From sequence record NZ_CP023785.1: DNA of 64,000 nucleotides. One strand, 5' to 3'. The notes below the pieces were generated by a model that saw only the letters and a program-made list of their open reading frames with translations, did no database searches and had not been told where the DNA came from. Source of the stretch: a plasmid. Each line of letters begins with the position of its first letter. Within the stretch, counting starts at the first letter, position 1. Both the position numbers and the translations under genes were made by a program. Below, one piece after another: positions 197-58,846 of this stretch.

Positions 197-1874
197 CCTG
201 AATAATTCATACTTTTAATTAAAACCATGTGAAACTGCCTCACGGCAGCTTACAATTACTTTTTCATCTTCACCCGTTAAGTGATGAAAAAAGAACCCCT
301 TTCTGCTATGGTTAAAGTGACTAAACCAACCAAAAGAAAGGAGTTCTTTTCATGACTAGCTTACACAAAAACCAAGTAAAATTCAATTCAAATATCACTA
401 TTTCTCATACAGGTGGTCAATTATCGAGTGATTCGGGTCTCGTCCTAGTGAAAGAGCTGATGAACATCTTTGGTTTTTCTGAACTGGCTAAGCAACACAT
501 TCACATTGAAGACAAACGAGCGTATTTTACTCATGACAACTTATCCATACTTGAGCAGTTCATTATGCAATTAATTGCTGGTTACTCAGCTGATTCTGCA
601 GCTAATCTCCTGAGACAAGATCCTGTGTTTAAAGCTGTTTTAGATAGGAAAGAACTCGCTTCTCAATCTTCACTTTCCCGATTTTTAGATCGACTATCTG
701 AGGAGAATATCCATGAACTTCAAGCTTTGAACCAAGAACTTATCGATAAAGCACGCCTCATCCGTAATGATACGGAATTAATCATTGATTTAGATTCGAC
801 CCATTCAGATACATTTGGTCACCAAGAACAAACGAATTATAATACACACTACCAAACCTATGGTTACCATCCATTGGTAGCTTTTGACGGATTGACTGGT
901 GACTTCTTAAAAGCTGAACTACGTTCAGGAAATCAATATACATCAAAAGGCGTAAAGGAGTTTCTCACACCTTTATTAGAGCACTATAATCACTCTCTAC
1001 CAAACACTGACATCTTGGTTCGTGGAGACAGCGGGTTCGCTACACCTGGTGTGTATGATTCGTGTGAATCAAAAAAGAGTCATTATGTTATTCGACTGAA
1101 GAATAATCGTAGACTAGGTCAAATAGCTGAGAAATCAGTACTTTATGGCGATAATCAAAAGTGGGAAGAACGAGAAGTTCAGTACTTCTCGACCACTTAT
1201 CAAGCACAATCCTGGTCACAAAGTCGTCGCGTGTGTATACGCTCAACACGTGAAGCGGGCGAACTACTCTTTCGACATGAATTTATCGTGACGAATCTAT
1301 CAGAAAATGTTTCTCCTGATACCATCTTTTCTATCTATGCCAAACGTGGCACAATGGAGAACTTCATTAAAGAAGCGAAAGCTGGCTTTTACTTTGACAA
1401 AACAGACAGTCCTCGCTTTTTGGAGAATCATGTCCGAATGATGCTCAGCTTGATAGCTTACAACTTAGTCAACTTCTTAAGAACGATTGGCTTTGAAGAA
1501 GTCCAAAAGGGAATGACCATTCATTCTATTCGATTGAAGTTTCTGAAAGTTGCTGGGAAATTAGTCCAAACGGGTAGACGAGTCTATCTCAAATTATCTA
1601 GTTATCATGTGTATCAGAATGAATTCTACAGGGTCTTTGCTCGCCTGAGGCGAGCCAGTCAATGGATCTAATCCAACAATCTAACGATTTTTTTACTGGG
1701 AAGTTATCCAGGGAGAAGTATGCTCAAAATGCCTTACACCCAAAATTTATTCCTCAATATTTTTGAACAGTGAATGTTTGAAGTAACTTTTTAGTCAAAA
1801 TCAGTTGATAGGGATATTAGTGATACATATTTCAATAAAATGTGCCAAAGAATTAAAGCTATGAATTATTCAGG
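197..1874 (+). mobile_element. IS1380-family insertion sequence (about 1.68 kb) with 15-bp terminal IRs cctgaataattcata and 6-bp flanking direct repeat tactaa
   Basis: IRs at 197-211 and 1860-1874 (inverted); identical tactaa at 191-196 and 1875-1880; single 439-aa DDE ORF inside. Confidence 0.7.
352..1671 (+). CDS. IS1380-family DDE transposase (439 aa)
   Basis: Length and motifs (HYQTYGYHPLVAFD..., DSGFATPGVYD...) are typical of the IS1380/DDE_Tnp_1_3 group. Family assignment is from memory. Confidence 0.7.
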   Translation: MTSLHKNQVKFNSNITISHTGGQLSSDSGLVLVKELMNIFGFSELAKQHIHIEDKRAYFTHDNLSILEQFIMQLIAGYSADSAANLLRQDPVFKAVLDRKELASQSSLSRFLDRLSEENIHELQALNQELIDKARLIRNDTELIIDLDSTHSDTFGHQEQTNYNTHYQTYGYHPLVAFDGLTGDFLKAELRSGNQYTSKGVKEFLTPLLEHYNHSLPNTDILVRGDSGFATPGVYDSCESKKSHYVIRLKNNRRLGQIAEKSVLYGDNQKWEEREVQYFSTTYQAQSWSQSRRVCIRSTREAGELLFRHEFIVTNLSENVSPDTIFSIYAKRGTMENFIKEAKAGFYFDKTDSPRFLENHVRMMLSLIAYNLVNFLRTIGFEEVQKGMTIHSIRLKFLKVAGKLVQTGRRVYLKLSSYHVYQNEFYRVFARLRRASQWI

Positions 1875-1914
1875 TACTAATGTCTTTTATAATAGCTTTT
1901 CATATATTATATAA

Positions 1915-2655
1915 TCAATCTTTATAAGTCCTTTTATAAATTTCTTTTCTACCATTTTCGATAAATTCCTGTTTAATATTTTTAATTCCATAAACAATAG
2001 TTTCAATAGGATAATATTCTTCAACTATATCTTGATATTCTTTTGCTTTCTCAATATCTATATTTCCATACATTCTTAATATATCTTCTCCAAAATTTGT
2101 TCCTATTTCTTCTTCACTATCTTCAAGTAAGTATATAAAATCACAATATTCATCTATAATTCCAGAATCTCCAAAATCAATTATTCCAGTTAATCTATTA
2201 TTGCCATCTAACAATAGATGATTACAACTAAAATCATTATGGCATAAACACTTTTTACCCTCAAAAACTGTTGTTGCATTTAGTCTTTCCATAAAACTTT
2301 CTATATAATCTTTTTCTATATCAGTTAAATCATTATAAATAGTTTCACGCAACAATATATACTCTTCTAATACATTTTGTTTATTATCAATAGTACATTC
2401 ACTAATATCTGTATAATCTAAACCGTGCATTTGTCTTAAAAAACTGGCAATATCTCGTTTTAACAAATTTTGTTCTTCTTCTGACATAGTAGAATAAATT
2501 TCTGGTGTTAAAAAAGTTCCTTTAATTTCTTTATAACCTAGTATAGATAATTCATCACTAATATACGAATATTCAATATTAGGAATTTTTACATTAGTTT
2601 CTAAATTTGTATTTAAAAAATTATATATTGCTTTTTCTTTTGCATAACCTTTTTT
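1915..2655 (-). pseudogene. aacA-aphD: 3' portion (APH(2'') domain) of bifunctional aac(6')-Ie-aph(2'')-Ia, separated from its 5' part by an IS256-family insertion
   Basis: Translation [25 protein letters not shown]...[12 protein letters not shown] matches the C-terminal two thirds of AAC(6')-APH(2'') as I recall it; the gene resumes immediately left of the 8-bp duplication cctttttt. Confidence 0.9.
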
Positions 2656-4807
<2,152 letters not shown>

Positions 4808-4808
4808 T

Positions 4809-6572
4809 TGTCAATATAGTTGTCGTATTTTTATTTTCCACCTATCAAAAAGCAGAACCTCCCTATGGTCGGTTGGCCTCGTTATCCAATAGGGGAAGAA
4901 TAACTTTTTCCCCTATTGGGTGACGAGGGTTATTTGATAATCTTGAAAGATTATGCTCCTGTTAACTTTCTGTTTCTTTTAAAGGATTCAACGCCACCGA
5001 TTGATGTGGAGTCCAATTTCGAACACCTTTTGACCAGCGTTCAGGATGGCGCTTTTTAGCGTCCTCGTAAACCTGCTTTCGTTTCTCTAAAATAGCGAGA
5101 TGTCGTCCTTCATGACACGCTGCAGGAGACACAAATTGAATCCCACTATGCAAATGAGAATCGTTATACCAATCGACAAACTCTTTCGTCCATTTTCGAG
5201 CATCATCTATTGTTTTAAAGCCGTTATTGGGATATTCTGGTCGATATTTTAACGTTCGGAAAGCCGCTTCCGAATAAGGATTGTCATTACTCACTCGTGG
5301 TCTTGAATAAGAACTTTGAATTCCTAATTTTTCGAGTAAGACTTGAAAAGTCGCGGCTTTCATAGGGCTGCCATTATCGGAGTGTAAAACCAACGGCTGT
5401 CCTTGGATACGTTCCTTAAGCACCGTCTGTTTAATAAGTTTTTCGGCATGACGAGCTTCTTCTGATTCCCAAATCTCCCAGCCTACCATTTTACGGCTAA
5501 ATAAATCAATGATGAGATATAACCGGTAAAAGAGTCCTTTTATTGGACCTTTTAGCCAAGTAATATCCCAAGTCCAAACTTCATTTGGCTTCGTCGCAAG
5601 GTGACTTGGCGGTATGCGTTTTTGTGAAACTTGACTTCGGCCACGGTGATGTTGCATATTTTTTTCTCGCAATACACGATAGAAGCTAGACTCTGATGCA
5701 ATATAAATCGAGCAATCCGCAAGTTTTGGTACAATTTGGCTAGGTGGCAAATTCATAAATTCTTTTTTTGAAACGGTTTCTATTATTTTTTCGCGTTCTT
5801 GATCCGTCAGTTTATTTTTGGGTACAGGACGTTTCGCCAAAGGGCGTTGATCATGCGCTATCGTACCTTCACGCGTCCATCGTTCGTAGGTTCGAACGCT
5901 AATATTCAGCTCATTACAGGCATAGGTGAGACGGGCCCCATTGCGATTGGCTTCTTGAATAAGTTCAACAGCTTGTTTGCGATCTGAAGATGAAATCATT
6001 CTTCCTCTTGGTCCCCCCCAAATCGCGTGTGCTTTTTTTCTTAGTAATAAGAGAGCAGCGGCTTCCGCTAATGCTTTTTCCTTATGACGTAATTCTTTCT
6101 CTAATTGACGCGCTTGTTTTTTCTCTTCTTTTAGTTCAGTTGCAAGTTCTCTCGTTCGATTTTCTTCCTGTTCATTCGCAGATAAGCACGTTTTCTTCCA
6201 AGCCTCAATTTGTTCTTTAAATAAGCCCTTCTTTCGGCAATATTCCGCAAGTTCTACTTGGTTCATTGAGAATGATTCCATCACAATTAAAAATTTATCT
6301 TCACTTGACCATTTTTCGACATTTTTTTTCGTTCCGGGTGTAGTATTCCCTTGAATTCTAGCTTTTTTACGCCAAGAACAAAGAGTCGCTTCTGGAATGC
6401 CCAAAGTTTGACTTAATTGGCGAATCCCCCTATTTTCGGGTGGCATCATTTTCTTGATGGCTGTCGCTTTCAGTTCGGTAGAGTAACGTTCATTGTTTTT
6501 ATTTGTCATGGTAATCATCCTCCGTATAGTCTTTATTATAACTTATTATCCTATACGACAACTAGCCTAACA
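4809..6572 (-). mobile_element. IS3-family element (~1.76 kb) with terminal IRs tgt(c/t)a..tagttgtcgtat and a 19-bp internal hairpin 4856-4912
   Basis: Ends were defined by comparing 4809-4840 with the reverse complement of 6548-6572. There is no TSD; on both sides the element abuts truncated genes. Confidence 0.55.
4962..6518 (-). CDS. IS3-family transposase, OrfA-OrfB fused in one 518-aa frame (HTH + leucine zipper + rve DDE core)
   Basis: N-terminal HTH and zipper ELATELKEEKKQARQLEKEL; C-terminal integrase core WTWDITW..HSDNGSPMKA.. Confidence 0.75.
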   Translation of the reverse strand: MITMTNKNNERYSTELKATAIKKMMPPENRGIRQLSQTLGIPEATLCSWRKKARIQGNTTPGTKKNVEKWSSEDKFLIVMESFSMNQVELAEYCRKKGLFKEQIEAWKKTCLSANEQEENRTRELATELKEEKKQARQLEKELRHKEKALAEAAALLLLRKKAHAIWGGPRGRMISSSDRKQAVELIQEANRNGARLTYACNELNISVRTYERWTREGTIAHDQRPLAKRPVPKNKLTDQEREKIIETVSKKEFMNLPPSQIVPKLADCSIYIASESSFYRVLREKNMQHHRGRSQVSQKRIPPSHLATKPNEVWTWDITWLKGPIKGLFYRLYLIIDLFSRKMVGWEIWESEEARHAEKLIKQTVLKERIQGQPLVLHSDNGSPMKAATFQVLLEKLGIQSSYSRPRVSNDNPYSEAAFRTLKYRPEYPNNGFKTIDDARKWTKEFVDWYNDSHLHSGIQFVSPAACHEGRHLAILEKRKQVYEDAKKRHPERWSKGVRNWTPHQSVALNPLKETES

Positions 6573-6833
6573 TAGGGGGTCTTGTAGTGCTTTAGCTTTA
6601 AATTTTGTTTGAAGTATATCCCAAAGTCTAATTTGTGGATCTAAACTCATAAAATCGGATAGCTTTTTAGCGCTGTTTTTATTAAGGTTTCCGACTATCG
6701 TCATAGCGTCAAAGCTCAATTTCGGATTAGAAGTGCACACGAAATGTGCGTCTAACCGGCTATTAGAGTACGCCGGTTTTTTTGTGTAATTTTCCACCAA
6801 ATTTTCTTGCTCATTTTTCGTTATTTTTGCCAT
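6573..6833 (-). pseudogene. N-terminal 87 codons of a pT181-family (Rep_trans) rolling-circle replication initiator, truncated by the IS3 element; contains dso-like IR aaccggcgtactctaatagccggtt (6754-6778)
   Basis: [84 protein letters not shown] is near-colinear with pT181 RepC residues ~20-95 (from memory), and the nick-site motif TACTCT/AATAGCCGGTT sits in the same position as in pT181. Confidence 0.8.
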
Positions 6834-7003
6834 AAAAAGCGACTCCTTAATTTTGTTTAAGAAGTCGCTTTTCCAATTACATTTGCGAATATATATCTTG
6901 AAGAATAATCTTAAATCGTTTAATATCAAGATATACAATTAAGAAACAAACATCGACTGTTTATTTTGCTCACAAACTTTGGTCGGGGAGTGAGCGACTT
7001 CTT
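6834..7003 (-). promoter_or_regulatory. rep leader with pT181-type transcription attenuator: terminator hairpin (6835-6844/6863-6872) that sequesters the SD aaggagtc just 5' of the ATG, plus upstream preemptor aagaagtcgct (6992-7002) complementary to the 5' arm
   Basis: Complementarities read directly from sequence; arrangement corresponds to the countertranscript-driven attenuation described for pT181. Confidence 0.45.
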
Positions 7004-7070: not shown

Positions 7071-7508
7071 TACCAAAACTTATTACATAATCAAAACTTA
7101 ATTCTCTTTAGATAATTTATATTGCTGGTAAGTATAATAAACTATCAATGATTGCACTACTACTTGTGAAAAAGCTAATGATACTCGAATGATTTTCTTC
7201 GTTTTCTCACTCATTTTACTCAACTCCTTTCGTTGCTTTATTCCAATTTCCTTATTGGTCGGAACCTACAGGGCTTTATGTGTTGTTGAGTTGGTACTTT
7301 CTTGGGATTAATCCCAATTCAAGTCCAACCAACTCGCTAACAAGTTAGCTAACACATAGCCCATTCCAACCAATAAGTTTTCTCGGCATAAAAACGTGTT
7401 ATAATACTATTAGTTGTTTTTTCATAAGGAGTTACCCCCTTATTTGCATTTATTTTGCATTTTAAGGGGGTATTTTGCGTATTTAGCCCTTTTTATATAT
7501 AAATCTAC

Positions 7509-8100: not shown

Positions 8101-8531
8101 GGTTCTGTTGCAAAGTTTTAAATAAAGAATAAAATCCCTTACGGTATCTATGATTTAAGCTGGGATTCCCAATAATACCTTGATTTCAGTACAGACCGAA
8201 AACCCGAAGAGAGTGCCTTCTTTCCGGGTTTTCTTATATAATCCTCGAATGGCTTCCATGCCTTTAATCGTGGTAGAGGCAGTGCGTAAACTTCGATAGA
8301 ATTTATTGCGTCTCTTTACTGGACGATGGTCTTGTTCAATCAAATTATTCAGGTATTTAATGGTACGATGTTCTGTCCCTTGATAAAAGCCGTATTCTTT
8401 TAGTTTCTTAAAGGCACTTGTAATAGAGGGGGCTTTATCTGTGACTACAACCTTCGGTTCATCAAACTGCTTCACTAACCGCTTAAGAAAAGCATAGGCT
8501 GCTTGTGTGTCCCGTTTTTTACGTAACCAAA
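8101..8531 (-). mobile_element. IS1216 3' fragment (IR + C-terminal ~120 codons), truncated by insertion of a second IS6 element
   Basis: IR at 8101-8119; translation WLRKKRDTQAAYAFLKRLVKQFDEPKVVV... identical to intact copies. Confidence 0.85.
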
Positions 8532-15556: not shown

Positions 15557-16375
15557 TAAGATAATTGGTTCTGTTGCAAAGTTTTAAATCTACTATCAAA
15601 TAAGATAGAATAATAGAAAAAGATAGCAGGAGGAATAACGATGAATCATTTTAAAGGAAAGCAATTTCAGCAGGATGTGATTATTGTAGCCGTGGGCTAC
15701 TATCTTCGTTATAACCTTAGCTATCGTGAAGTTCAAGAAATCTTATATGATCGTGACATTAACGTTTCTCATACGACGATTTATCGTTGGGTGCAAGAAT
15801 ATGGCAAACTACTCTATCAAATTTGGAAAAAGAAAAATAAAAAATCCTTTTATTCATGGAAAATGGATGAAACGTACATCAAAATTAAAGGAAAATGGCA
15901 TTATTTGTATCGAGCCATCGATGCAGATGGTTTAACCTTGGATATTTGGTTACGTAAAAAACGGGACACACAAGCAGCCTATGCTTTTCTTAAGCGGTTA
16001 GTGAAGCAGTTTGATGAACCGAAGGTTGTAGTCACAGATAAAGCCCCCTCTATTACAAGTGCCTTTAAGAAACTAAAAGAATACGGCTTTTATCAAGGGA
16101 CAGAACATCGTACCATTAAATACCTGAATAATTTGATTGAACAAGACCATCGTCCAGTAAAGAGACGCAATAAATTCTATCGAAGTTTACGCACTGCCTC
16201 TACCACGATTAAAGGCATGGAAGCCATTCGAGGATTATATAAGAAAACCCGAAAAGAAGGCACTCTCTTCGGGTTTTCGGTCTGTACTGAAATCAAGGTA
16301 TTATTGGGAATCCCAGCTTAAATCATAGATACCGTAAGGGATTTTATTCTTTATTTAAAACTTTGCAACAGAACC
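15557..16375 (+). mobile_element. IS1216 (IS6 family), intact
   Basis: 18-bp IRs ggttctgttgcaaagttt at both ends, 226-aa tnp. Confidence 0.95.
15641..16321 (+). CDS. IS1216 transposase
   Basis: MNHFKGKQFQQDVIIVAVGYYLRYNLSYREVQEILYDRDINVSHTTIYRW... Confidence 0.95.
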   Translation: MNHFKGKQFQQDVIIVAVGYYLRYNLSYREVQEILYDRDINVSHTTIYRWVQEYGKLLYQIWKKKNKKSFYSWKMDETYIKIKGKWHYLYRAIDADGLTLDIWLRKKRDTQAAYAFLKRLVKQFDEPKVVVTDKAPSITSAFKKLKEYGFYQGTEHRTIKYLNNLIEQDHRPVKRRNKFYRSLRTASTTIKGMEAIRGLYKKTRKEGTLFGFSVCTEIKVLLGIPA

Positions 16376-18572
16376 CAAATTTTGTTCCTCCTCAAAGAAA
16401 AAGAGACTTTTGGAAAGAATTTCCAGAGTTCACGTAACCCTAAAAATTCATATCCAAAAATCTCTAGCTTGAAGAAACCTAAAAATATTCGTATAATGAA
16501 CCTGAGTTACGGAGCTAGGTGAAGTAGTTTCCGTAAATAGTCGAGAGTGTTAGCGCACTGCTCGGCTTTTATTTTGCTCTTTTTTCTCGTTTTCTTTGAT
16601 TATAGCACTCCTCCTAAAAAAATAAAAAGACCTCAGGGAATTTCATTCCCCGAACCCCTTGAGCCTCCTCCTGCCGAAATGGAAAGGGCGCACCCGCTGT
16701 TTATTTCATTCAGCTATCGGCTTTCACAATCTAACACGATCGTTCCGCTACCAGTCGCCTTACAGGCTCCATTTTCGCTCCTCTAACGTGTTTTAACGAT
16801 TGTGCCGATAACTAAACGAAATAAACGCTAAAACCGCTCAGAACGCAAAATATGCCATTTTAGAGCTATTGTAGAAAATGTAGTTTGAAATGCAATTTTC
16901 TTCTTTCAGCTTTTTATTTCCCACTTGTAAATCTGCTAATTATTTTCTACCAGACAAACCATTGATTTTTTGGCTATCAGTTAACTCACGATTATTATGA
17001 GAAATGCTTGTATTCTTTGTTCCCTTTTTGAACGAAATACTAAACCCTAAGGTGAACCCCTCCTTCGCGCTGTCGCTAATAAAAAGAGTGTAAACCTTTC
17101 TGTTACTCTTTGACAAAGAGTAACATTTTCCTAATTGTGACATGGCTGTCACAATTCCAAACGCTCTCCGAGGGTTTTCGCTGTCACAAGTGACAACGAA
17201 AAAAGGAGCCGAAAGCGTGTCACGCTCTCAACTCCTTTTACGCTTTATTTTGCTTCACGCAAAATAATCGCTTATCTTAAACATTGACGTAAATTTACTC
17301 TCACTTATCTGACTTTTTTACTCGGTATCACTCCGAGTAAGCCGTCATATTCATTGGGATAATCTCGTCTGCTTCGCTCTAATTTTCCAGAGTGAGGGGT
17401 AACTCCTTCCCCCGAATTACCCCAAAGAGTGACACTGGGATATCCCTAAATTTATTATAAAAAGCCAAGTCTCTTTGCGCAACTGTTTTATCCAAGTCGG
17501 CATTTGCGGATTCGTTAGCGTTTTTTCGCTCTTGCTGCAAACGCACGACCCACCATGCCGACTTGTGCTGAAAATAAAAAAGTGGACAAAAATTCATCCA
17601 CTCATTCTTCCGTCACGTCCAACCCCAAAAGCCACGTATCCAATTCTTTTTTCAAAACATCTGCCGATTCCGAAAATGTCTCTCGTAAATGATTAACTAA
17701 CTCATCACTTTGGCTTTCTTTTTTCAACAAATTTCGATATTTATATTTTGTATGACGAGCCAAGCCAGCCCATAAATTTTGATCTGAAATCAATCCTGCA
17801 ATCATAATTCTATCAGTATGCTTTGTATCAGTCGGCAAAAAATGAGGACTTGCGAAACTGTCTAAACTTTCATGAACCATCGCATACCAATCAGTAGCTT
17901 TTCCACGCCGTAACTGCAATTCCAGTCGCCACCAAGTTTTTATTTCCGGTGGTACAATTTTCCGTTTGGTTTCTTGTTCCAATTTTTTGTTGTACATCCT
18001 TATTTGTCGCTCACTGGCACGACTACCCCAATATGCCGTTTCCAGCTTCCCAGACCGCCCATAGATTGGTTTGAATGAAACAGGGTCAACCACACGATAT
18101 TGCGTAATAAAATCATCAGGCACATCGATAATGTCGCAAGCAATATCAGCACGTGAGAAATGTGGTTCTAAAAATAAATCATGGATAAAGTTCTTCATCG
18201 AACCCGCCAAAAATTGGCTAATTTTATTTGGGTTAAAGTCAATTCGCCCTTGCCCTTCTTGATATTTCAAAATTTCAATGTAAGCAATATTCTCATCATG
18301 CTTATCCACAATTTGCCAACCATTTAGACCAACAGATTTAACATAACCATTATTTTCATTCAGTCGCATTAACTGTTCAAAGTCTAAAATCAATACATCA
18401 TTTTGCGTGTGATAATAAATATTCTCTTTGAGTTTTCCAACAATGGTAATTCGGTCAATTGACCACTGTATTTTAAGGGGGGTGGTCAAAGTTTGCACAC
18501 TTAACCGCCTGTTAGATAGGGCTGTTAAATTTTCCCACTCATTTATGATCGTGCCACGTTTACTCAAATTTT
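16376..18572 (-). other. remnant of a small pT181-family rolling-circle plasmid trapped between two directly repeated IS1216 copies (rep gene plus ~1.2 kb of downstream non-coding sequence rich in palindromes)
   Basis: Rep_trans ORF 17602-18572; palindromes tgtgacatggctgtcaca (17126-17143), ctgtcacaagtgacaac (17172-17188), ttactcggtatcactccgagtaa (17319-17341). Confidence 0.5.
17602..18572 (-). pseudogene. pT181-family Rep_trans replication initiator, 5' end (first ~20-30 codons, promoter and leader) replaced by IS1216
   Basis: RIDFNPNK, ETAYWGSRASERQIRMYNKK, TWWRLELQLRRG, RHTKYKYRNLLKKE blocks parallel pT181 RepC; dso-like 24-mer at 18492-18516; ORF runs into the IS1216 IR. Confidence 0.7.
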
Positions 18573-19381
18573 GGTTCTGTTGCAAAGTTTTAAATCTACT
18601 ATCAAATAAGATAGAATAATAGAAAAAGATAGCAGGAGGAATAACGATGAATCATTTTAAAGGAAAGCAATTTCAGCAGGATGTGATTATTGTAGCCGTG
18701 GGCTACTATCTTCGTTATAACCTTAGCTATCGTGAAGTTCAAGAAATCTTATATGATCGTGACATTAACGTTTCTCATACGACGATTTATCGTTGGGTGC
18801 AAGAATATGGCAAACTACTCTATCAAATTTGGAAAAAGAAAAATAAAAAATCCTTTTATTCATGGAAAATGGATGAAACGTACATCAAAATTAAAGGAAA
18901 ATGGCATTATTTGTATCGAGCCATCGATGCAGATGGTTTAACCTTGGATATTTGGTTACGTAAAAAACGGGACACACAAGCAGCCTATGCTTTTCTTAAG
19001 CGGTTAGTGAAGCAGTTTGATGAACCGAAGGTTGTAGTCACAGATAAAGCCCCCTCTATTACAAGTGCCTTTAAGAAACTAAAAGAATACGGCTTTTATC
19101 AAGGGACAGAACATCGTACCATTAAATACCTGAATAATTTGATTGAACAAGACCATCGTCCAGTAAAGAGACGCAATAAATTCTATCGAAGTTTACGCAC
19201 TGCCTCTACCACGATTAAAGGCATGGAAGCCATTCGAGGATTATATAAGAAAACCCGAAAAGAAGGCACTCTCTTCGGGTTTTCGGTCTGTACTGAAATC
19301 AAGGTATTATTGGGAATCCCAGCTTAAATCATAGATACCGTAAGGGATTTTATTCTTTATTTAAAACTTTGCAACAGAACC
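18573..19381 (+). mobile_element. IS1216, intact
   Basis: IRs at both ends. Confidence 0.95.
18647..19327 (+). CDS. IS1216 transposase
   Basis: identical to 15641-16321. Confidence 0.95.
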   Translation: MNHFKGKQFQQDVIIVAVGYYLRYNLSYREVQEILYDRDINVSHTTIYRWVQEYGKLLYQIWKKKNKKSFYSWKMDETYIKIKGKWHYLYRAIDADGLTLDIWLRKKRDTQAAYAFLKRLVKQFDEPKVVVTDKAPSITSAFKKLKEYGFYQGTEHRTIKYLNNLIEQDHRPVKRRNKFYRSLRTASTTIKGMEAIRGLYKKTRKEGTLFGFSVCTEIKVLLGIPA

Positions 19382-19428: not shown

Positions 19429-20311
19429 TTAAGAAAATATTTTTATTTTAAAGATAAAAAATTCTTCATCCTGCAATACTTTATATTCTATATTGTAATT
19501 ATTCAGAATATTACTTACAATATATAAACCTAATCCATTACTATTTTCCTTATTTAAATCAAATTTAACATCAAATATTTTATCCATATTCGAAATTTTA
19601 TTGTTACCGTATGAATTCTCTATATATAACCAATCATTAACTATCCCAATATTAATTACCCCATTTACATCAGTATATTTTACCGCATTACTAATCAAAT
19701 TAGATAGAATAATCTTTAAAGCTGTTTTTCCTATATAAACATTCTCGTCTAATATATAATTATTGACAGTTATTTTCTTTTGATTTGCTAATATTTCATA
19801 CTTTTTTAATATGTCTTCTAATGTATCATTTATTTTCAAATATTCTTCATCATTATTCAAATTTTCTATAGAATGAACTGATAATATTTGAGAAATATTT
19901 TTTGTTAAACTATCAACGATTTCAATACATTCATTAATATAAATATCTCTTTCTTTATATTTTCCAATATTGTATTTCATGTTTTCCAGTATTATTTTAA
20001 GACTAGCAAGAGGGGTTTTAAGTTCATGGGATGCACCTTTAAAAAAGTCATATTTTAACTTTTCTAATTTTAAAATTTCTTTATTTTTAAATTCCAAATC
20101 GTCAATTGTTCTTAATAAAGTAGAATACAAATCATTAATTTGTTGTTTTAATTCTCCAACTTCATCATTAGAGCTAACTTTTAAACTCATTTTTTTATCA
20201 AGTTTCATCATTTTATCAGTAACAATTTTTATTTCTTGTATATTATTTTTTATTGATTTTGCATAAATTAAAGAAATAATAGCAGAAAATAAAATTGATA
20301 TTAATAAAGAA
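19429..20311 (-). pseudogene. sensor histidine kinase (HisKA + HATPase), N-terminal sensor/TM region removed by IS256; no cognate response regulator nearby
   Basis: H-box GASHELKTPLASL, N-box SNLISNAVKYT, G-box NSNGLGLYIV; apparent N-terminal 45 aa are read-through of the IS256 left end. Confidence 0.8.
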
Positions 20312-21645
20312 GATAAAGTCCTTATAATTGTGTAAAAGTAAAAAGGCCATGTAACAGTCCTTTTACGGTACAATGTTTTTAACGACAAAAACATACCCAG
20401 GAGGACTTTTACATGACCCAAGTACATTTTACACTGAAAAGCGAAGAGATTCAAAGCATTATTGAATATTCTGTAAAGGATGACGTTTCTAAAAATATTT
20501 TAACAACGGTATTTAATCAACTAATGGAAAATCAACGAACAGAATATATTCAAGCAAAAGAATATGAACGAACAGAAAACCGACAAAGTCAACGAAATGG
20601 CTATTATGAGCGCAGCTTTACGACACGTATAGGCACGCTAGAATTAAAAGTACCCAGAACACGTGATGGCCATTTTTCACCCACAGTGTTTGAACGTTAT
20701 CAACGAAACGAAAAAGCCCTCATTGCTTCAATGTTGGAAATGTATGTATCAGGCGTTTCAACTCGTAAAGTATCAAAAATTGTGGAAGAACTTTGTGGTA
20801 AATCCGTCTCTAAGTCCTTCGTTTCTAGCTTAACAGAACAGCTAGAACCAATGGTTAACGAGTGGCAGAATCGTTTATTATCAGAAAAAAATTATCCTTA
20901 CTTAATGACCGATGTACTCTATATAAAAGTACGAGAAGAAAATCGAGTACTCTCAAAAAGCTGTCATATAGCGATTGGAATAACCAAAGATGGCGACCGT
21001 GAAATTATCGGCTTCATGATTCAAAGTGGCGAAAGCGAAGAGACCTGGATAACATTTTTTGAATACCTAAAAGAACGCGGTTTACAAGGTACAGAACTCG
21101 TTATTTCTGATGCGCACAAAGGATTAGTCTCTGCCATTAGAAAATCCTTCACCAACGCAAGTTGGCAAAGATGCCAAGTTCACTTCCTAAGAAATATCTT
21201 TACCACCATTCCTAAAAAAAATTCAAAATCTTTCAGAGAAGCTGTTAAAGGAATTTTTAAGTTCACAGATATTAACTTAGCTCGTGAGGCTAAAAATCGA
21301 TTGATTCATGATTATATCGATCAACCAAAATATTCAAAAGCTTGCGCATCATTGGATGATGGATTCGAAGACGCCTTTCAATATACCGTACAAGGAAATT
21401 CCCACAATCGACTAAAGAGTACCAATCTAATTGAACGACTGAATCAAGAAGTGCGCAGAAGAGAAAAAATTATTCGTATCTTTCCAAACTGCGTTTCAGC
21501 CAATCGTTTAATTGGAGCAGTCCTTATTGATCAACACGATGAGTGGCTTTCTTCATCAAGAAAATATATTAAATTTGCCAAGTAAAAAATAGTGAGAGCA
21601 TTGTATAGTATTTTACACAGGATTGTGGACTTGACTTTTTTTTCA
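20312..21645 (+). mobile_element. IS256, intact (about 1.33 kb)
   Basis: left end gataaagtccttataattgtgtaaaag, right end ...cacaggattgtggacttgac. Confidence 0.9.
20413..21585 (+). CDS. IS256 transposase (390 aa)
   Basis: MTQVHFTLKSEEIQSIIEYSV... matches IS256 Tnp from memory. Confidence 0.95.
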   Translation: MTQVHFTLKSEEIQSIIEYSVKDDVSKNILTTVFNQLMENQRTEYIQAKEYERTENRQSQRNGYYERSFTTRIGTLELKVPRTRDGHFSPTVFERYQRNEKALIASMLEMYVSGVSTRKVSKIVEELCGKSVSKSFVSSLTEQLEPMVNEWQNRLLSEKNYPYLMTDVLYIKVREENRVLSKSCHIAIGITKDGDREIIGFMIQSGESEETWITFFEYLKERGLQGTELVISDAHKGLVSAIRKSFTNASWQRCQVHFLRNIFTTIPKKNSKSFREAVKGIFKFTDINLAREAKNRLIHDYIDQPKYSKACASLDDGFEDAFQYTVQGNSHNRLKSTNLIERLNQEVRRREKIIRIFPNCVSANRLIGAVLIDQHDEWLSSSRKYIKFAK

Positions 21646-34370: not shown

Positions 34371-35178
34371 GGTTCTGTTGCAAAGTTTTAAATAAAGAAT
34401 AAAATCCCTTACGGTATCTATGATTTAAGCTGGGATTCCCAATAATACCTTGATTTCAGTACAGACCGAAAACCCGAAGAGAGTGCCTTCTTTTCGGGTT
34501 TTCTTATATAATCCTCGAATGGCTTCCATGCCTTTAATCGTGGTAGAGGCAGTGCGTAAACTTCGATAGAATTTATTGCGTCTCTTTACTGGACGATGGT
34601 CTTGTTCAATCAAATTATTCAGGTATTTAATGGTACGATGTTCTGTCCCTTGATAAAAGCCGTATTCTTTTAGTTTCTTAAAGGCACTTGTAATAGAGGG
34701 GGCTTTATCTGTGACTACAACCTTCGGTTCATCAAACTGCTTCACTAACCGCTTAAGAAAAGCATAGGCTGCTTGTGTGTCCCGTTTTTTACGTAACCAG
34801 ATATCTAAGGTTAAGCCGTCCGCATCAATTGCACGATAAAGATAATGCCAACGTCCCTTAATTTTGATATAGGTTTCGTCCATTTTCCATGAATAGAAGG
34901 ATTGTCTATTTTTCTTCTTCCAAAGATAATAGAGGACTTTGCTGTACTCTTATACCCAACGATAAATCGTAGTATGACAAACATTTATTCCACGATCATA
35001 TAACAATTCCTGAACTTCACGATAGCTTAGATTGTAACGCAGGTAGTAACCAACAGCGACAATAATGACGTCTTTTTTGAATTGTTTGCCTTTAAAATGA
35101 TTCATTACTCTGTCCTCTCTGTCTTTTTTCTCAATTTTACACTAAAATAGATTTTTTGGAAAACTTTGCAACAGAACC
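34371..35178 (-). mobile_element. IS6-family element, hybrid (5' third like the 8605 variant, remainder IS1216) with an in-frame TAA nonsense codon (Gln->stop at 34950-34952)
   Basis: IRs at both ends; CAA->TAA relative to copy at 8605. Confidence 0.85.
34425..35100 (-). pseudogene. IS6 transposase inactivated by nonsense mutation
   Basis: W V * E Y S at position where other copy reads W V Q E Y S. Confidence 0.8.
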
Positions 35179-51898: not shown

Positions 51899-52707
51899 GG
51901 TTCTGTTGCAAAGTTTTAAATCTACTATCAAATAAGGTAGAATAATAGAAAAAGATAGCAGGAGGAATGACGATGAATCATTTTAAAGGAAAGCAATTTC
52001 AGCAGGATGTGATTATTGTAGCCGTGGGCTACTATCTTCGTTATAACCTTAGCTATCGTGAAGTTCAAGAAATCTTATATGATCGTGGCATTAACGTTTC
52101 TCATGCGACGATTTATCGTTGGGTGCAAGAATATGGCAAACTACTCTATCAAATTTGGAAAAAGAAAAATAAAAAATCCTTTTATTCATGGAAAATGGAT
52201 GAAACGTACATCAAAATTAAAGGAAAATGGCATTATTTGTATCGAGCCATCGATGCAGATGGTTTAACCTTGGATATTTGGTTACGTAAAAAACGGGACA
52301 CACAAGCAGCCTATGCTTTTCTTAAGCGGTTAGTGAAGCAGTTTGATGAACCGAAGGTTGTAGTCACAGATAAAGCCCCCTCTATTACAAGTGCCTTTAA
52401 GAAACTAAAAGAATACGGCTTTTATCAAGGGACAGAACATCGTACCATTAAATACCTGAATAATTTGATTGAACAAGACCATCGTCCAGTAAAGAGACGC
52501 AATAAATTCTATCGAAGTTTACGCACTGCCTCTACCACGATTAAAGGCATGGAAGCCATTCGAGGATTATATAAGAAAACCCGAAAAGAAGGCACTCTCT
52601 TCGGGTTTTCGGTCTGTACTGAAATCAAGGTATTATTGGGAATCCCAGCTTAAATCATAGATACCGTAAGGGATTTTATTCTTTATTTAAAACTTTGCAA
52701 CAGAACC
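51899..52707 (+). mobile_element. IS1216, intact
   Basis: IRs both ends. Confidence 0.95.
51973..52653 (+). CDS. IS1216 transposase
   Basis: as above. Confidence 0.95.
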   Translation: MNHFKGKQFQQDVIIVAVGYYLRYNLSYREVQEILYDRGINVSHATIYRWVQEYGKLLYQIWKKKNKKSFYSWKMDETYIKIKGKWHYLYRAIDADGLTLDIWLRKKRDTQAAYAFLKRLVKQFDEPKVVVTDKAPSITSAFKKLKEYGFYQGTEHRTIKYLNNLIEQDHRPVKRRNKFYRSLRTASTTIKGMEAIRGLYKKTRKEGTLFGFSVCTEIKVLLGIPA

Positions 52708-56911: not shown

Positions 56912-57720
56912 GGTTCTGTTGCAAAGTTTTAAATAAAGAATAAAATCCCTTACGGTATCTATGATTTAAGCTGGGATTCCCAATAATACCTTGATTTCAG
57001 TACAGACCGAAAACCCGAAGAGAGTGCCTTCTTTTCGGGTTTTCTTATATAATCCTCGAATGGCTTCCATGCCTTTAATCGTGGTAGAGGCAGTGCGTAA
57101 ACTTCGATAGAATTTATTGCGTCTCTTTACTGGACGATGGTCTTGTTCAATCAAATTATTCAGGTATTTAATGGTACGATGTTCTGTCCCTTGATAAAAG
57201 CCGTATTCTTTTAGTTTCTTAAAGGCACTTGTAATAGAGGGGGCTTTATCTGTGACTACAACCTTCGGTTCATCAAACTGCTTCACTAACCGCTTAAGAA
57301 AAGCATAGGCTGCTTGTGTGTCCCGTTTTTTACGTAACCAAATATCCAAGGTTAAACCATCTGCATCGATGGCTCGATACAAATAATGCCATTTTCCTTT
57401 AATTTTGATGTACGTTTCATCCATTTTCCATGAATAAAAGGATTTTTTATTTTTCTTTTTCCAAATTTGATAGAGTAGTTTGCCATATTCTTGCACCCAA
57501 CGATAAATCGTCGCATGAGAAACGTTAATGCCACGATCATATAAGATTTCTTGAACTTCACGATAGCTAAGGTTATAACGAAGATAGTAGCCCACGGCTA
57601 CAATAATCACATCCTGCTGAAATTGCTTTCCTTTAAAATGATTCATCGTCATTCCTCCTGCTATCTTTTTCTATTATTCTACCTTATTTGATAGTAGATT
57701 TAAAACTTTGCAACAGAACC
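56912..57720 (-). mobile_element. IS1216, intact
   Basis: IRs both ends. Confidence 0.95.
56966..57646 (-). CDS. IS1216 transposase
   Basis: as above. Confidence 0.95.
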   Translation of the reverse strand: MNHFKGKQFQQDVIIVAVGYYLRYNLSYREVQEILYDRGINVSHATIYRWVQEYGKLLYQIWKKKNKKSFYSWKMDETYIKIKGKWHYLYRAIDADGLTLDIWLRKKRDTQAAYAFLKRLVKQFDEPKVVVTDKAPSITSAFKKLKEYGFYQGTEHRTIKYLNNLIEQDHRPVKRRNKFYRSLRTASTTIKGMEAIRGLYKKTRKEGTLFGFSVCTEIKVLLGIPA

Positions 57721-58037: not shown

Positions 58038-58846
58038 GGTTCTGTTGCAAAGTTTTAAATAAAGAATAAAATCCCTTACGGTATCTATGATTTAAGCTGG
58101 GATTCCCAATAATACCTTGATTTCAGTACAGACCGAAAACCCGAAGAGAGTGCCTTCTTTTCGGGTTTTCTTATATAATCCTCGAATGGCTTCCATGCCT
58201 TTAATCGTGGTAGAGGCAGTGCGTAAACTTCGATAGAATTTATTGCGTCTCTTTACTGGACGATGGTCTTGTTCAATCAAATTATTCAGGTATTTAATGG
58301 TACGATGTTCTGTCCCTTGATAAAAGCCGTATTCTTTTAGTTTCTTAAAGGCACTTGTAATAGAGGGGGCTTTATCTGTGACTACAACCTTCGGTTCATC
58401 AAACTGCTTCACTAACCGCTTAAGAAAAGCATAGGCTGCTTGTGTGTCCCGTTTTTTACGTAACCAAATATCCAAGGTTAAACCATCTGCATCGATGGCT
58501 CGATACAAATAATGCCATTTTCCTTTAATTTTGATGTACGTTTCATCCATTTTCCATGAATAAAAGGATTTTTTATTTTTCTTTTTCCAAATTTGATAGA
58601 GTAGTTTGCTATATTCTTGCACCCAACGATAAATCGTCGCATGAGAAACGTTAATGCCACGATCATATAAGATTTCTTGAACTTCACGATAGCTAAGGTT
58701 ATAACGAAGATAGTAGTCCACGGCTACAATAATCACATCCTGCTGAAATTGCTTTCCTTTAAAATGATTCATCGTCATTCCTCCTGCTATCTTTTTCTAT
58801 TATTCTACCTTATTTGATAGTAGATTTAAAACTTTGCAACAGAACC
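58038..58846 (-). mobile_element. IS1216, intact (tnp with G->D substitution at codon 20)
   Basis: IRs both ends. Confidence 0.95.
58092..58772 (-). CDS. IS1216 transposase
   Basis: as above. Confidence 0.95.
   Translation of the reverse strand: MNHFKGKQFQQDVIIVAVDYYLRYNLSYREVQEILYDRGINVSHATIYRWVQEYSKLLYQIWKKKNKKSFYSWKMDETYIKIKGKWHYLYRAIDADGLTLDIWLRKKRDTQAAYAFLKRLVKQFDEPKVVVTDKAPSITSAFKKLKEYGFYQGTEHRTIKYLNNLIEQDHRPVKRRNKFYRSLRTASTTIKGMEAIRGLYKKTRKEGTLFGFSVCTEIKVLLGIPA

Follow-up and report, generated by a model that had tools for sequence, protein, structure and literature searches.

We analyzed a 64,000-nucleotide (nt) stretch of the plasmid record NZ_CP023785.1 (the window; all coordinates refer to it), in which p6, a small rolling-circle (RC) plasmid, is enclosed between two copies of the insertion sequence (IS) IS1216. 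Copy 1 (15567 to 16375; transposase coding sequence, 15641 to 16321) and copy 2 (18573 to 19381; transposase coding sequence, 18647 to 19327) were each 809 bp long, were located in direct orientation on the plus strand, showed 0 mismatches to each other, and enclosed 2,197 bp (16376 to 18572). A previous interpretation of this DNA, made without database searches and referred to here as the sequence-only reading, had recognized two direct IS1216 copies around 2.2 kb, which agrees with our results; its start position, 15557, was 10 bp too early, as IS1216 begins at 15567. The transposase matched the Pfam family DDE_Tnp_IS240 (1.5e-41) and is an IS6-type DDE transposase. The terminal inverted repeats were also IS6-type, with the ends GGTTCTGTTGCAAAGTTT, and the PGAP annotation in NZ_CP017793 is IS6-like IS1216.

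The segment between the IS1216 copies began and ended with the same 8-bp sequence, CAAATTTT (left copy, 16376 to 16383; right copy, 18565 to 18572), which constitutes a target-site duplication. When one 8-mer was removed, the remaining DNA (16376 to 18564) corresponded to a 2,189-bp circle with 0 mismatches to plasmid p6 of Enterococcus faecium Aus0085 (CP006626.1). The two sequences are the same, but p6 is free in Aus0085, and it is integrated in the window and circularly permuted at the start of its replication initiator gene (rep). CAAATTTT had a single occurrence in the free circle, and 11 E. faecium records of 2,189 bp matched the segment at 100%. The captured DNA is an entire, previously sequenced RC plasmid plus an 8-bp target duplication; it is not a replicon remnant, as had been proposed. 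The sequence-only reading had named a match to a contiguous known plasmid as an observation that would refute it, and 16376 to 18572 matched free p6.

The 8-bp repeats were located on the inner sides of the IS1216 copies, next to the incorporated molecule, and the outer flanks of the pair had no duplication (AGATAATT versus ATAATAAG). According to the sequence-only reading, a degraded Rep_trans remnant, whose 5' end and promoter had been deleted, arrived here as the cargo of a composite IS1216 transposon, which moved as a unit. The flanking direct IS1216 copies and a mechanically listed open reading frame (ORF) that extends into the IS inverted repeat are in line with this proposal. However, nothing is missing from the plasmid, the rep coding sequence is full length, the 8-bp repeats are on the inner sides of the IS1216 copies, and the outer flanks, which have no duplication, already hold one IS1216 in more than 100 relatives, as described below. 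We consider a remnant in a composite transposon to be extremely improbable; the complete p6 match, the inner-only repeats, and the single-IS empty site refute it.

The main gene in the captured segment is rep (17602 to 18567, minus strand), a complete 966-nt gene of the Rep_trans family that starts with a TTG codon at 18567, encodes 321 amino acids (aa), and is followed by a terminator-like hairpin (17603 to 17580, minus strand). Records of free p6 and of the cointegrates discussed below annotate the coding sequence at full length, and it ends 5 bp from the junction. The Rep protein matched Pfam PF02486 (Rep_trans) with 34.2 bits (cut-off, 29.6), the staphylococcal RepDE/RepDN crystal-structure sequences (PDB 4CWE/4CWC; E=1.8e-25), and RepC of pT181 over nearly its full length (30% identity; E=1e-28). 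An NCBIfam search yielded no match for p6 Rep or for the other Rep in the window. All three of the Rep sequence blocks that had been pointed out previously were present: RIDFNPNK (aa 108), ETAYWGSRASERQIRMYNKK (aa 176), and WWRLELQLRR (aa 212). In terms of the Rep_trans motifs, whose residue roles have been described (PMC4797284, PMC6395029), the catalytic R-x-Y-N-K is IRMYNKK with Tyr192 as the catalytic residue, and the metal-binding R-x-D-x-A-x-D and R-x-E are FSRADIACD and WRLE, respectively. Judged by its sequence, Rep is a true pT181-type (Rep_trans) initiator, and the previous family assignment was correct.

On the rep strand, the target duplication is AAAATTTG, or AAAAT plus TTG, which corresponds to 5 spacer bases and the rep start codon. 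Because the duplication covers the spacer and the start codon only, the rep coding sequence remained intact. The region upstream of the integrated rep consisted of the IS inverted repeat only and lacked a Shine-Dalgarno (SD) sequence. The putative expression signals of rep, whose functions are proposed by analogy with pT181 (PMC5703833), were located at 16384 to 16607 on the minus strand, at the far end of the segment. Specifically, we found an extended -10 element, TGcTATAAT (16607 to 16599); two leader stem-loops (about 16566 to 16540 and 16534 to 16509); a long attenuator-like (terminator-like) hairpin (16465 to 16402), followed by a T-run (16402 to 16394); and the SD sequence GAGGAGG (16393 to 16387), which is 2.2 kb from rep. 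Thus, the 5' end and promoter of rep were not replaced by the IS inverted repeat, as had been thought; the coding sequence is complete, and its SD sequence, leader, and promoter were moved rather than lost. Because of this displacement, the integrated rep is probably silent and not translated, and the integrated replicon would be active only with Rep supplied in trans. A promoter scan facing rep, which included hybrid promoters formed with the IS1216 end, detected nothing with a score of at least 9/12, and a transcript from such a promoter would still lack an SD sequence.

To identify the site before capture, we joined the two outer flanks through a single IS1216 and used this composite as a query. 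Among 136 E. faecium plasmids, whose sizes ranged from about 150 to 295 kb, most matched the query at 100% over an uninterrupted 2,009 bp. A single IS1216 was located between the same flanks in more than 100 relatives, and therefore the ancestral site carried one IS1216. Copy 1 is the copy that is also found at the empty site of related megaplasmids. The remaining IS1216 copies in the window had 4 to 6 differences from the pair studied here.

IS6/IS26-family cointegrates are characterized by direct IS copies, an inner 8-bp duplication, two identifiable parents, and an IS6-type transposase with IS6-type ends, and we found each of these at the locus. The identical IS copies in direct orientation, the inner duplication, the free target circle, and the single-IS donor are therefore the signature of such a cointegrate. 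Harmer and Hall showed experimentally that IS1216 forms such cointegrates, in which the IS is duplicated in direct orientation and an 8-bp target-site duplication is generated (PMC6952201). The structure, its match to free p6, the duplicated target, and the single-IS empty site were all observed, and from these we infer that p6 was most likely incorporated into a pLG1-type E. faecium megaplasmid by IS1216 copy-in cointegration. Under this model, the resident IS1216 of the megaplasmid would have attacked free p6 in an intermolecular copy-in (replicative) reaction. The fusion of the two circles would have duplicated IS1216, yielding two identical direct copies, of which copy 2 would be the replica made during cointegration. 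The 8-bp target in the spacer and TTG codon of rep would have been duplicated, and p6, linearized at this target, would have been left whole between the IS1216 copies. The capture would have kept the intact rep coding sequence, the internal double-strand origin (dso), an ssoW-like single-strand origin (sso), and a mob/oriT stub. It would have severed rep from its SD sequence, attenuator leader, antisense-RNA control region, and promoter, which would now point into copy 1.

An alternative is that capture occurred in two steps. IS1216 would first have entered p6 to form a 3,006-bp p6::IS1216 circle (a translocatable unit), and this circle would then have joined the resident IS1216 via the targeted conservative reaction or homologous recombination. 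This route, which is close to the translocatable-unit idea of the sequence-only reading, would generate the same final structure, including the inner 8-bp repeats, and IS1216 uses the targeted conservative route about 150-fold more often than copy-in (PMC6952201). However, when we used the junction to look for a free circle of about 3.0 kb in PLSDB, none was found, and the junction was present in four megaplasmid records only. Excision as an IS1216 circle, which the sequence-only reading had also proposed, would yield this 3,006-bp molecule, which was likewise absent from PLSDB. In addition, a p6::IS1216 circle would not support translation of Rep and would need free p6 to persist. Copy-in is favored because both flanking IS1216 copies match the empty-site allele and the other copies in the window differ from it. 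Overall, the two-step route is possible but rather unlikely. Some points do weigh against our preferred model of copy-in followed by rep silencing. The copy-in and two-step routes give identical end products, and the resident IS1216 lacks a target duplication of its own in its outer flanks. Moreover, a weak hybrid promoter formed with the IS end, or read-through transcription, may still express rep.

The four PLSDB records with the exact cointegrate junction were CP017793, CP017798, CP017788, and OP378674, all of which are megaplasmids. Misassemblies classically arise at IS repeats and from small high-copy plasmids, and reads of free, high-copy p6 might have been misthreaded at the IS1216 repeat. 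In addition, three of the four records are near-identical New York plasmids of 169.8 to 171.5 kb whose accession numbers are adjacent. However, free p6 lacks IS1216 and hence offers no repeat through which an assembler could join the molecules. The junctions also have a precise 8-bp duplication, OP378674 is an independent record with the same junction, and the window is a further variant, as it agrees with the cointegrate records to position 20311 and then contains an extra IS256 insertion. Thus, an assembly artifact is very improbable. The IS256-family element (about 20312 to 21640), which has a 390-aa transposase ORF (20413 to 21585), splits a sensor histidine kinase gene that is uninterrupted in otherwise identical E240-type plasmids.

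A putative dso was identified inside rep. A nick hairpin resembling ICRII, AACAGCC-CTATCT/AACA-GGCGGTT (slash, predicted nick), was located at 18503 to 18526 on the minus strand, and the nick is predicted to fall between 18514 and 18513. This 24-mer had been noticed previously as a dso-like sequence in rep, but its reported position, 18492 to 18516, was off by about 10 bp. The 24-mer encodes T-A-L-S-N-R-R-L, which aligned with T-G-Y-S-N-S-R-L of RepC (shared pattern, T-x-x-S-N-x-R-L), and the aligned RepC codons contain the pT181 nick site CTACTCT/AATAG. The p6 hairpin folds with TCTAA in the loop. Its core, TCTAACAGGCGGTTAA, was invariant in five relatives, and the next 25 nt or so varied. 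The variable stretch downstream of the hairpin (about 18502 to 18470) is a candidate specificity repeat. Plasmids of the pT181 family have a conserved ICRII and a plasmid-specific ICRIII (PMC4797284), and the pattern in p6 mirrors this organization.

The displaced rep leader also had features that suggest RNA-based control. The 220-nt leader had a predicted RNA fold of -58.5 kcal/mol (z=-4.0). A predicted countertranscript (antisense RNA) region was found on the plus strand at 16469 to 16575; its promoter, TTGAAG-17-TATAAT (16469 to 16497), was the best promoter match of the region (10/12) and was kept in relatives. The predicted RNA of about 70 nt (about 16504 to about 16575) would be complementary to both leader stem-loops. 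When the leader was compared in four relatives, the stems were invariant and the loops were variable; 1 of 64 pairs was compensatory, as the relatives are too similar for covariation. The loop variants among p6-type plasmids included CGCTAA versus TTGACG and ACTTCACC versus AATCGCAC or AATCACAC (window positions 16509 to 16566). Invariant stems with variable loops are the pattern expected of antisense-RNA specificity determinants, and the leader loops, together with the stretch 3' of the nick hairpin, are candidate incompatibility/specificity determinants. A search of Rfam at E <=1 produced sub-threshold miRNA-like or sRNA matches only, reflecting the leader hairpin. The layout of the leader seems to parallel the countertranscript/attenuation control of pT181 (PMC5703833). 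We also noted that, on the minus strand of 16376 to 16607, the rep promoter, leader, SD sequence, and duplicated TTG run into IS1216 copy 1, antisense to the transposase gene, and that they open a 7-codon ORF (M-G-S-V-A-K-F). The displaced rep signals might dampen expression of the transposase from copy 1.

The sequence-only reading had described 1.2 kb of the segment as non-coding DNA with palindromes and a G+C-rich structured stretch that could hold the sso. The palindromes and the G+C-rich stretch were found, but the same 1.2 kb also includes an ssoW-like origin and a relaxase gene stub. The putative sso cassette (16632 to 16845, minus strand) had a GC content of 48.6%, versus 35% for the window. 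It contained an imperfect hairpin of about 130 nt (16697 to 16828), the CS-6-like sequence TAGCGT (16830 to 16825), and a second small hairpin (16654 to 16632), all on the minus strand. The fold was stronger on the minus strand (-33.4 kcal/mol) than on the plus strand (-26.5 kcal/mol). The cassette was 76 to 79% identical to Lactococcus plasmids of the pSH71/pWV01 type (2.0 to 2.7 kb), in the same orientation relative to rep, and the conservation was concentrated in the hairpin arms; with 2.06-kb plasmids of this type, the match covered 16636 to 16843. The replicase of these Lactococcus plasmids is an unrelated Rep_OBD protein. We refer to the cassette as ssoW-like because pSH71 carries ssoW (PMC6607859) and 16632 to 16845 resembles plasmids of this type. 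In an ssoA-type origin, the displaced strand would carry CS-6 (TAGCGT/A) and, about 40 nt to its 5' side, the RSB consensus TTTATGCCGAGAAAA. A search for RSB with up to 3 mismatches in 16376 to 18572 found no match, and TAGCGT was the one ssoA motif present; ssoA identity was therefore rejected for the p6 sso. Thus, of the two origin types suggested previously, an ssoW-like origin was supported and ssoA was not.

The remainder of the 1.2 kb included the stub of a MOBV (Mob_Pre) relaxase gene (16957 to 17052, minus strand), which comprises approximately the first 31 codons and has its TTG start changed to TTA. Positions 16957 to 17389 were 90 to 92% identical to the mob 5' end and upstream region of mobilizable E. 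faecium plasmids of 3.6 to 4.4 kb; the aligned relative pVB6521_p7 has an intact 468-aa gene (Pfam Mob_Pre, 8e-18). A Pfam search with the p6 stub gave no match, and an intact Mob_Pre relaxase gene was not encountered in p6. The region upstream of the stub (17053 to 17270, minus strand) was about 97% conserved with the region immediately upstream of mob in those mobilizable plasmids. It contained the TGTCACA/TGTGACA palindromes that had been reported previously (17136 to 17153 and 17182 to 17193) and more hairpins at 17101 to 17125 and 17201 to 17239. Based on its position, this region is putatively oriT-like. Two small ORFs, 17379 to 17597 and 16940 to 17152, had no Pfam match; the latter is the mob stub with an upstream GTG taken as its start.

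Other captures of small RC plasmids were found in public records. In pUCH1-1 (NZ_CP096212.1, positions 1692 to 5306), p6 occupied another site, next to aac(6')-aph(2''), and was again bounded by direct IS1216 copies. This capture was permuted differently (window positions 16605 to 18572 plus 16384 to 16412), had no target duplication, and lacked 192 bp (16413 to 16604), a loss that removed the rep -10 box along with most of the leader. In NZ_CP092559.1, a plasmid of Staphylococcus aureus VMRSA-WC052 (positions 3068 to 6907), the same left outer flank and IS1216 preceded a complete 1,979-bp Rep_trans plasmid that was 99.6% identical to p18-276_9 and had an 8-bp duplication, TCCCTGAT, inside its rep. 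On its right side, this plasmid adjoined the right inverted repeat (IRR) end of an inverted partial IS1216, which was followed by a full inverted copy. A target duplication located between two IRR ends is not expected from simple copy-in. These independent captures support the earlier proposal that small RC plasmids have repeatedly been co-integrated by IS6-mediated events. In all three cases (the window, pUCH1-1, and the VMRSA plasmid), rep was uncoupled or broken. It has long been held that selection acts against active RC replicons carried within larger plasmids (PMC5703833), and the three captures with an uncoupled or broken rep fit this view, although they are suggestive only.

The p6 capture closely resembles that of pCOLA, which IS1216 copy-in placed in pHHEf2, a pRUM-like plasmid (PMC12711152). 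In both cases, a whole small E. faecium plasmid is located between direct IS1216 copies, an 8-bp target-site duplication is the sole change from the free form, and the insertion disables rep, as is probable for p6. In contrast to p6, which is in a megaplasmid of 150 to 300 kb, pCOLA is 3,199 bp long and is in a 25-kb pRUM-like host. Moreover, the pCOLA duplication is inside the rep coding sequence, whereas that of p6 is on the SD-start spacer and start codon and leaves the coding sequence intact. RC plasmids flanked by IS257/IS431 (pUB110, pT181, and others) in staphylococcal multiresistance plasmids and SCCmec likewise have direct IS copies at each junction. Such repeats are left by unresolved replicative transposition of the IS6/IS26 family, and the captured replication functions tend to be inactivated (PMC5703833). 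The IS257/IS431 captures differ in that the IS is IS257, the genus is different, and a resistance gene is usually brought along, whereas p6 is cryptic and flanked by IS1216.

As a replicon, p6 resembles pT181 and pC221 in three ways. Rep has the Rep_trans fold with R-x-Y-N-K, R-x-D-x-A-x-D, and R-x-E; the putative dso occupies homologous codons in the 5' portion of rep, with TCT/AA in a hairpin loop; and the leader combines a putative countertranscript promoter with a terminator-like hairpin that immediately precedes the SD sequence. However, p6 differs in its Rep (30% aa identity), its ssoW-like rather than ssoA/palA origin, its lack of a resistance gene, its mob stub, and its Enterococcus host. 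The rep14a/pEFNP1-type class of small Rep_trans plasmids, 2 to 4 kb in size, is frequently reported from clinical E. faecium (PMC13141415), and p6 is a candidate for placement beside this class as named in the literature. Small Rep_trans plasmids and Rep_trans-containing mosaics are routine findings in clinical E. faecium (PMC13141415, PMC10651664).

The window contained a second, distinct Rep sequence. Positions 6567 to 6938 hold a pT181-group N-terminal Rep fragment of about 88 aa, which was 77% identical to RepC residues 23 to 91 (E=2e-37) and was cut off beside an IS3-family element with a transposase gene (4962 to 6518). This remnant, placed at 6573 by the sequence-only reading, had been credited with 35 to 40% aa identity to p6 Rep. 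Our comparisons did not support this value: BLASTP of p6 Rep versus the remnant yielded nothing significant (E values of 0.99 and 0.62), tblastn yielded no match there, and a local alignment gave about 30% identity over about 48 positions near the nick-site codons. An exact ssoA RSB, TTTATGCCGAGAAAA, was located at 7378 to 7392 (minus strand). It was the sole exact RSB in the window and lies upstream of the Rep fragment, at a distance of about 440 bp. Therefore, this first remnant still carries a palA/ssoA-type origin.

It is conceivable, though doubtful, that integrated p6 is more than inert cargo and that a co-resident p6-type plasmid or MOBV relaxase could act in trans on the Rep_trans dso, the sso, and the MOBV oriT-like region that p6 supplies to the megaplasmid. 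If so, a plasmid of 150 to 300 kb could be mobilized by a relaxase in trans, or it could undergo Rep-driven single-strand replication and rearrangement. Insertions would persist only if they separated rep from its expression signals, as in the window, pUCH1-1, and pCOLA. On a practical level, replicon-typing tools will label the megaplasmid as multi-replicon (rep_cluster_893 plus 943), and the second typed replicon is a whole cryptic plasmid whose rep is disconnected from its promoter and ribosome-binding site. The locus is a clean example of IS1216 cointegration, as sequences of the product and of its two parents are available together with the 8-bp duplication, and it might serve as a reference case. 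The captured p6 is a known cryptic plasmid that is already in public records, and the mechanism is known as well. The locus opens no new question; its value is mainly as a correction and an annotation.

The window also contained three further full copies of IS1216 (51899 to 52707, 56912 to 57720, and 58038 to 58846), which were 99.3 to 99.5% identical to the studied pair, as well as three partial copies (34371 to 35105, 8101 to 8531, and 4572 to 4802). The window is a region that has been heavily remodeled by IS1216.

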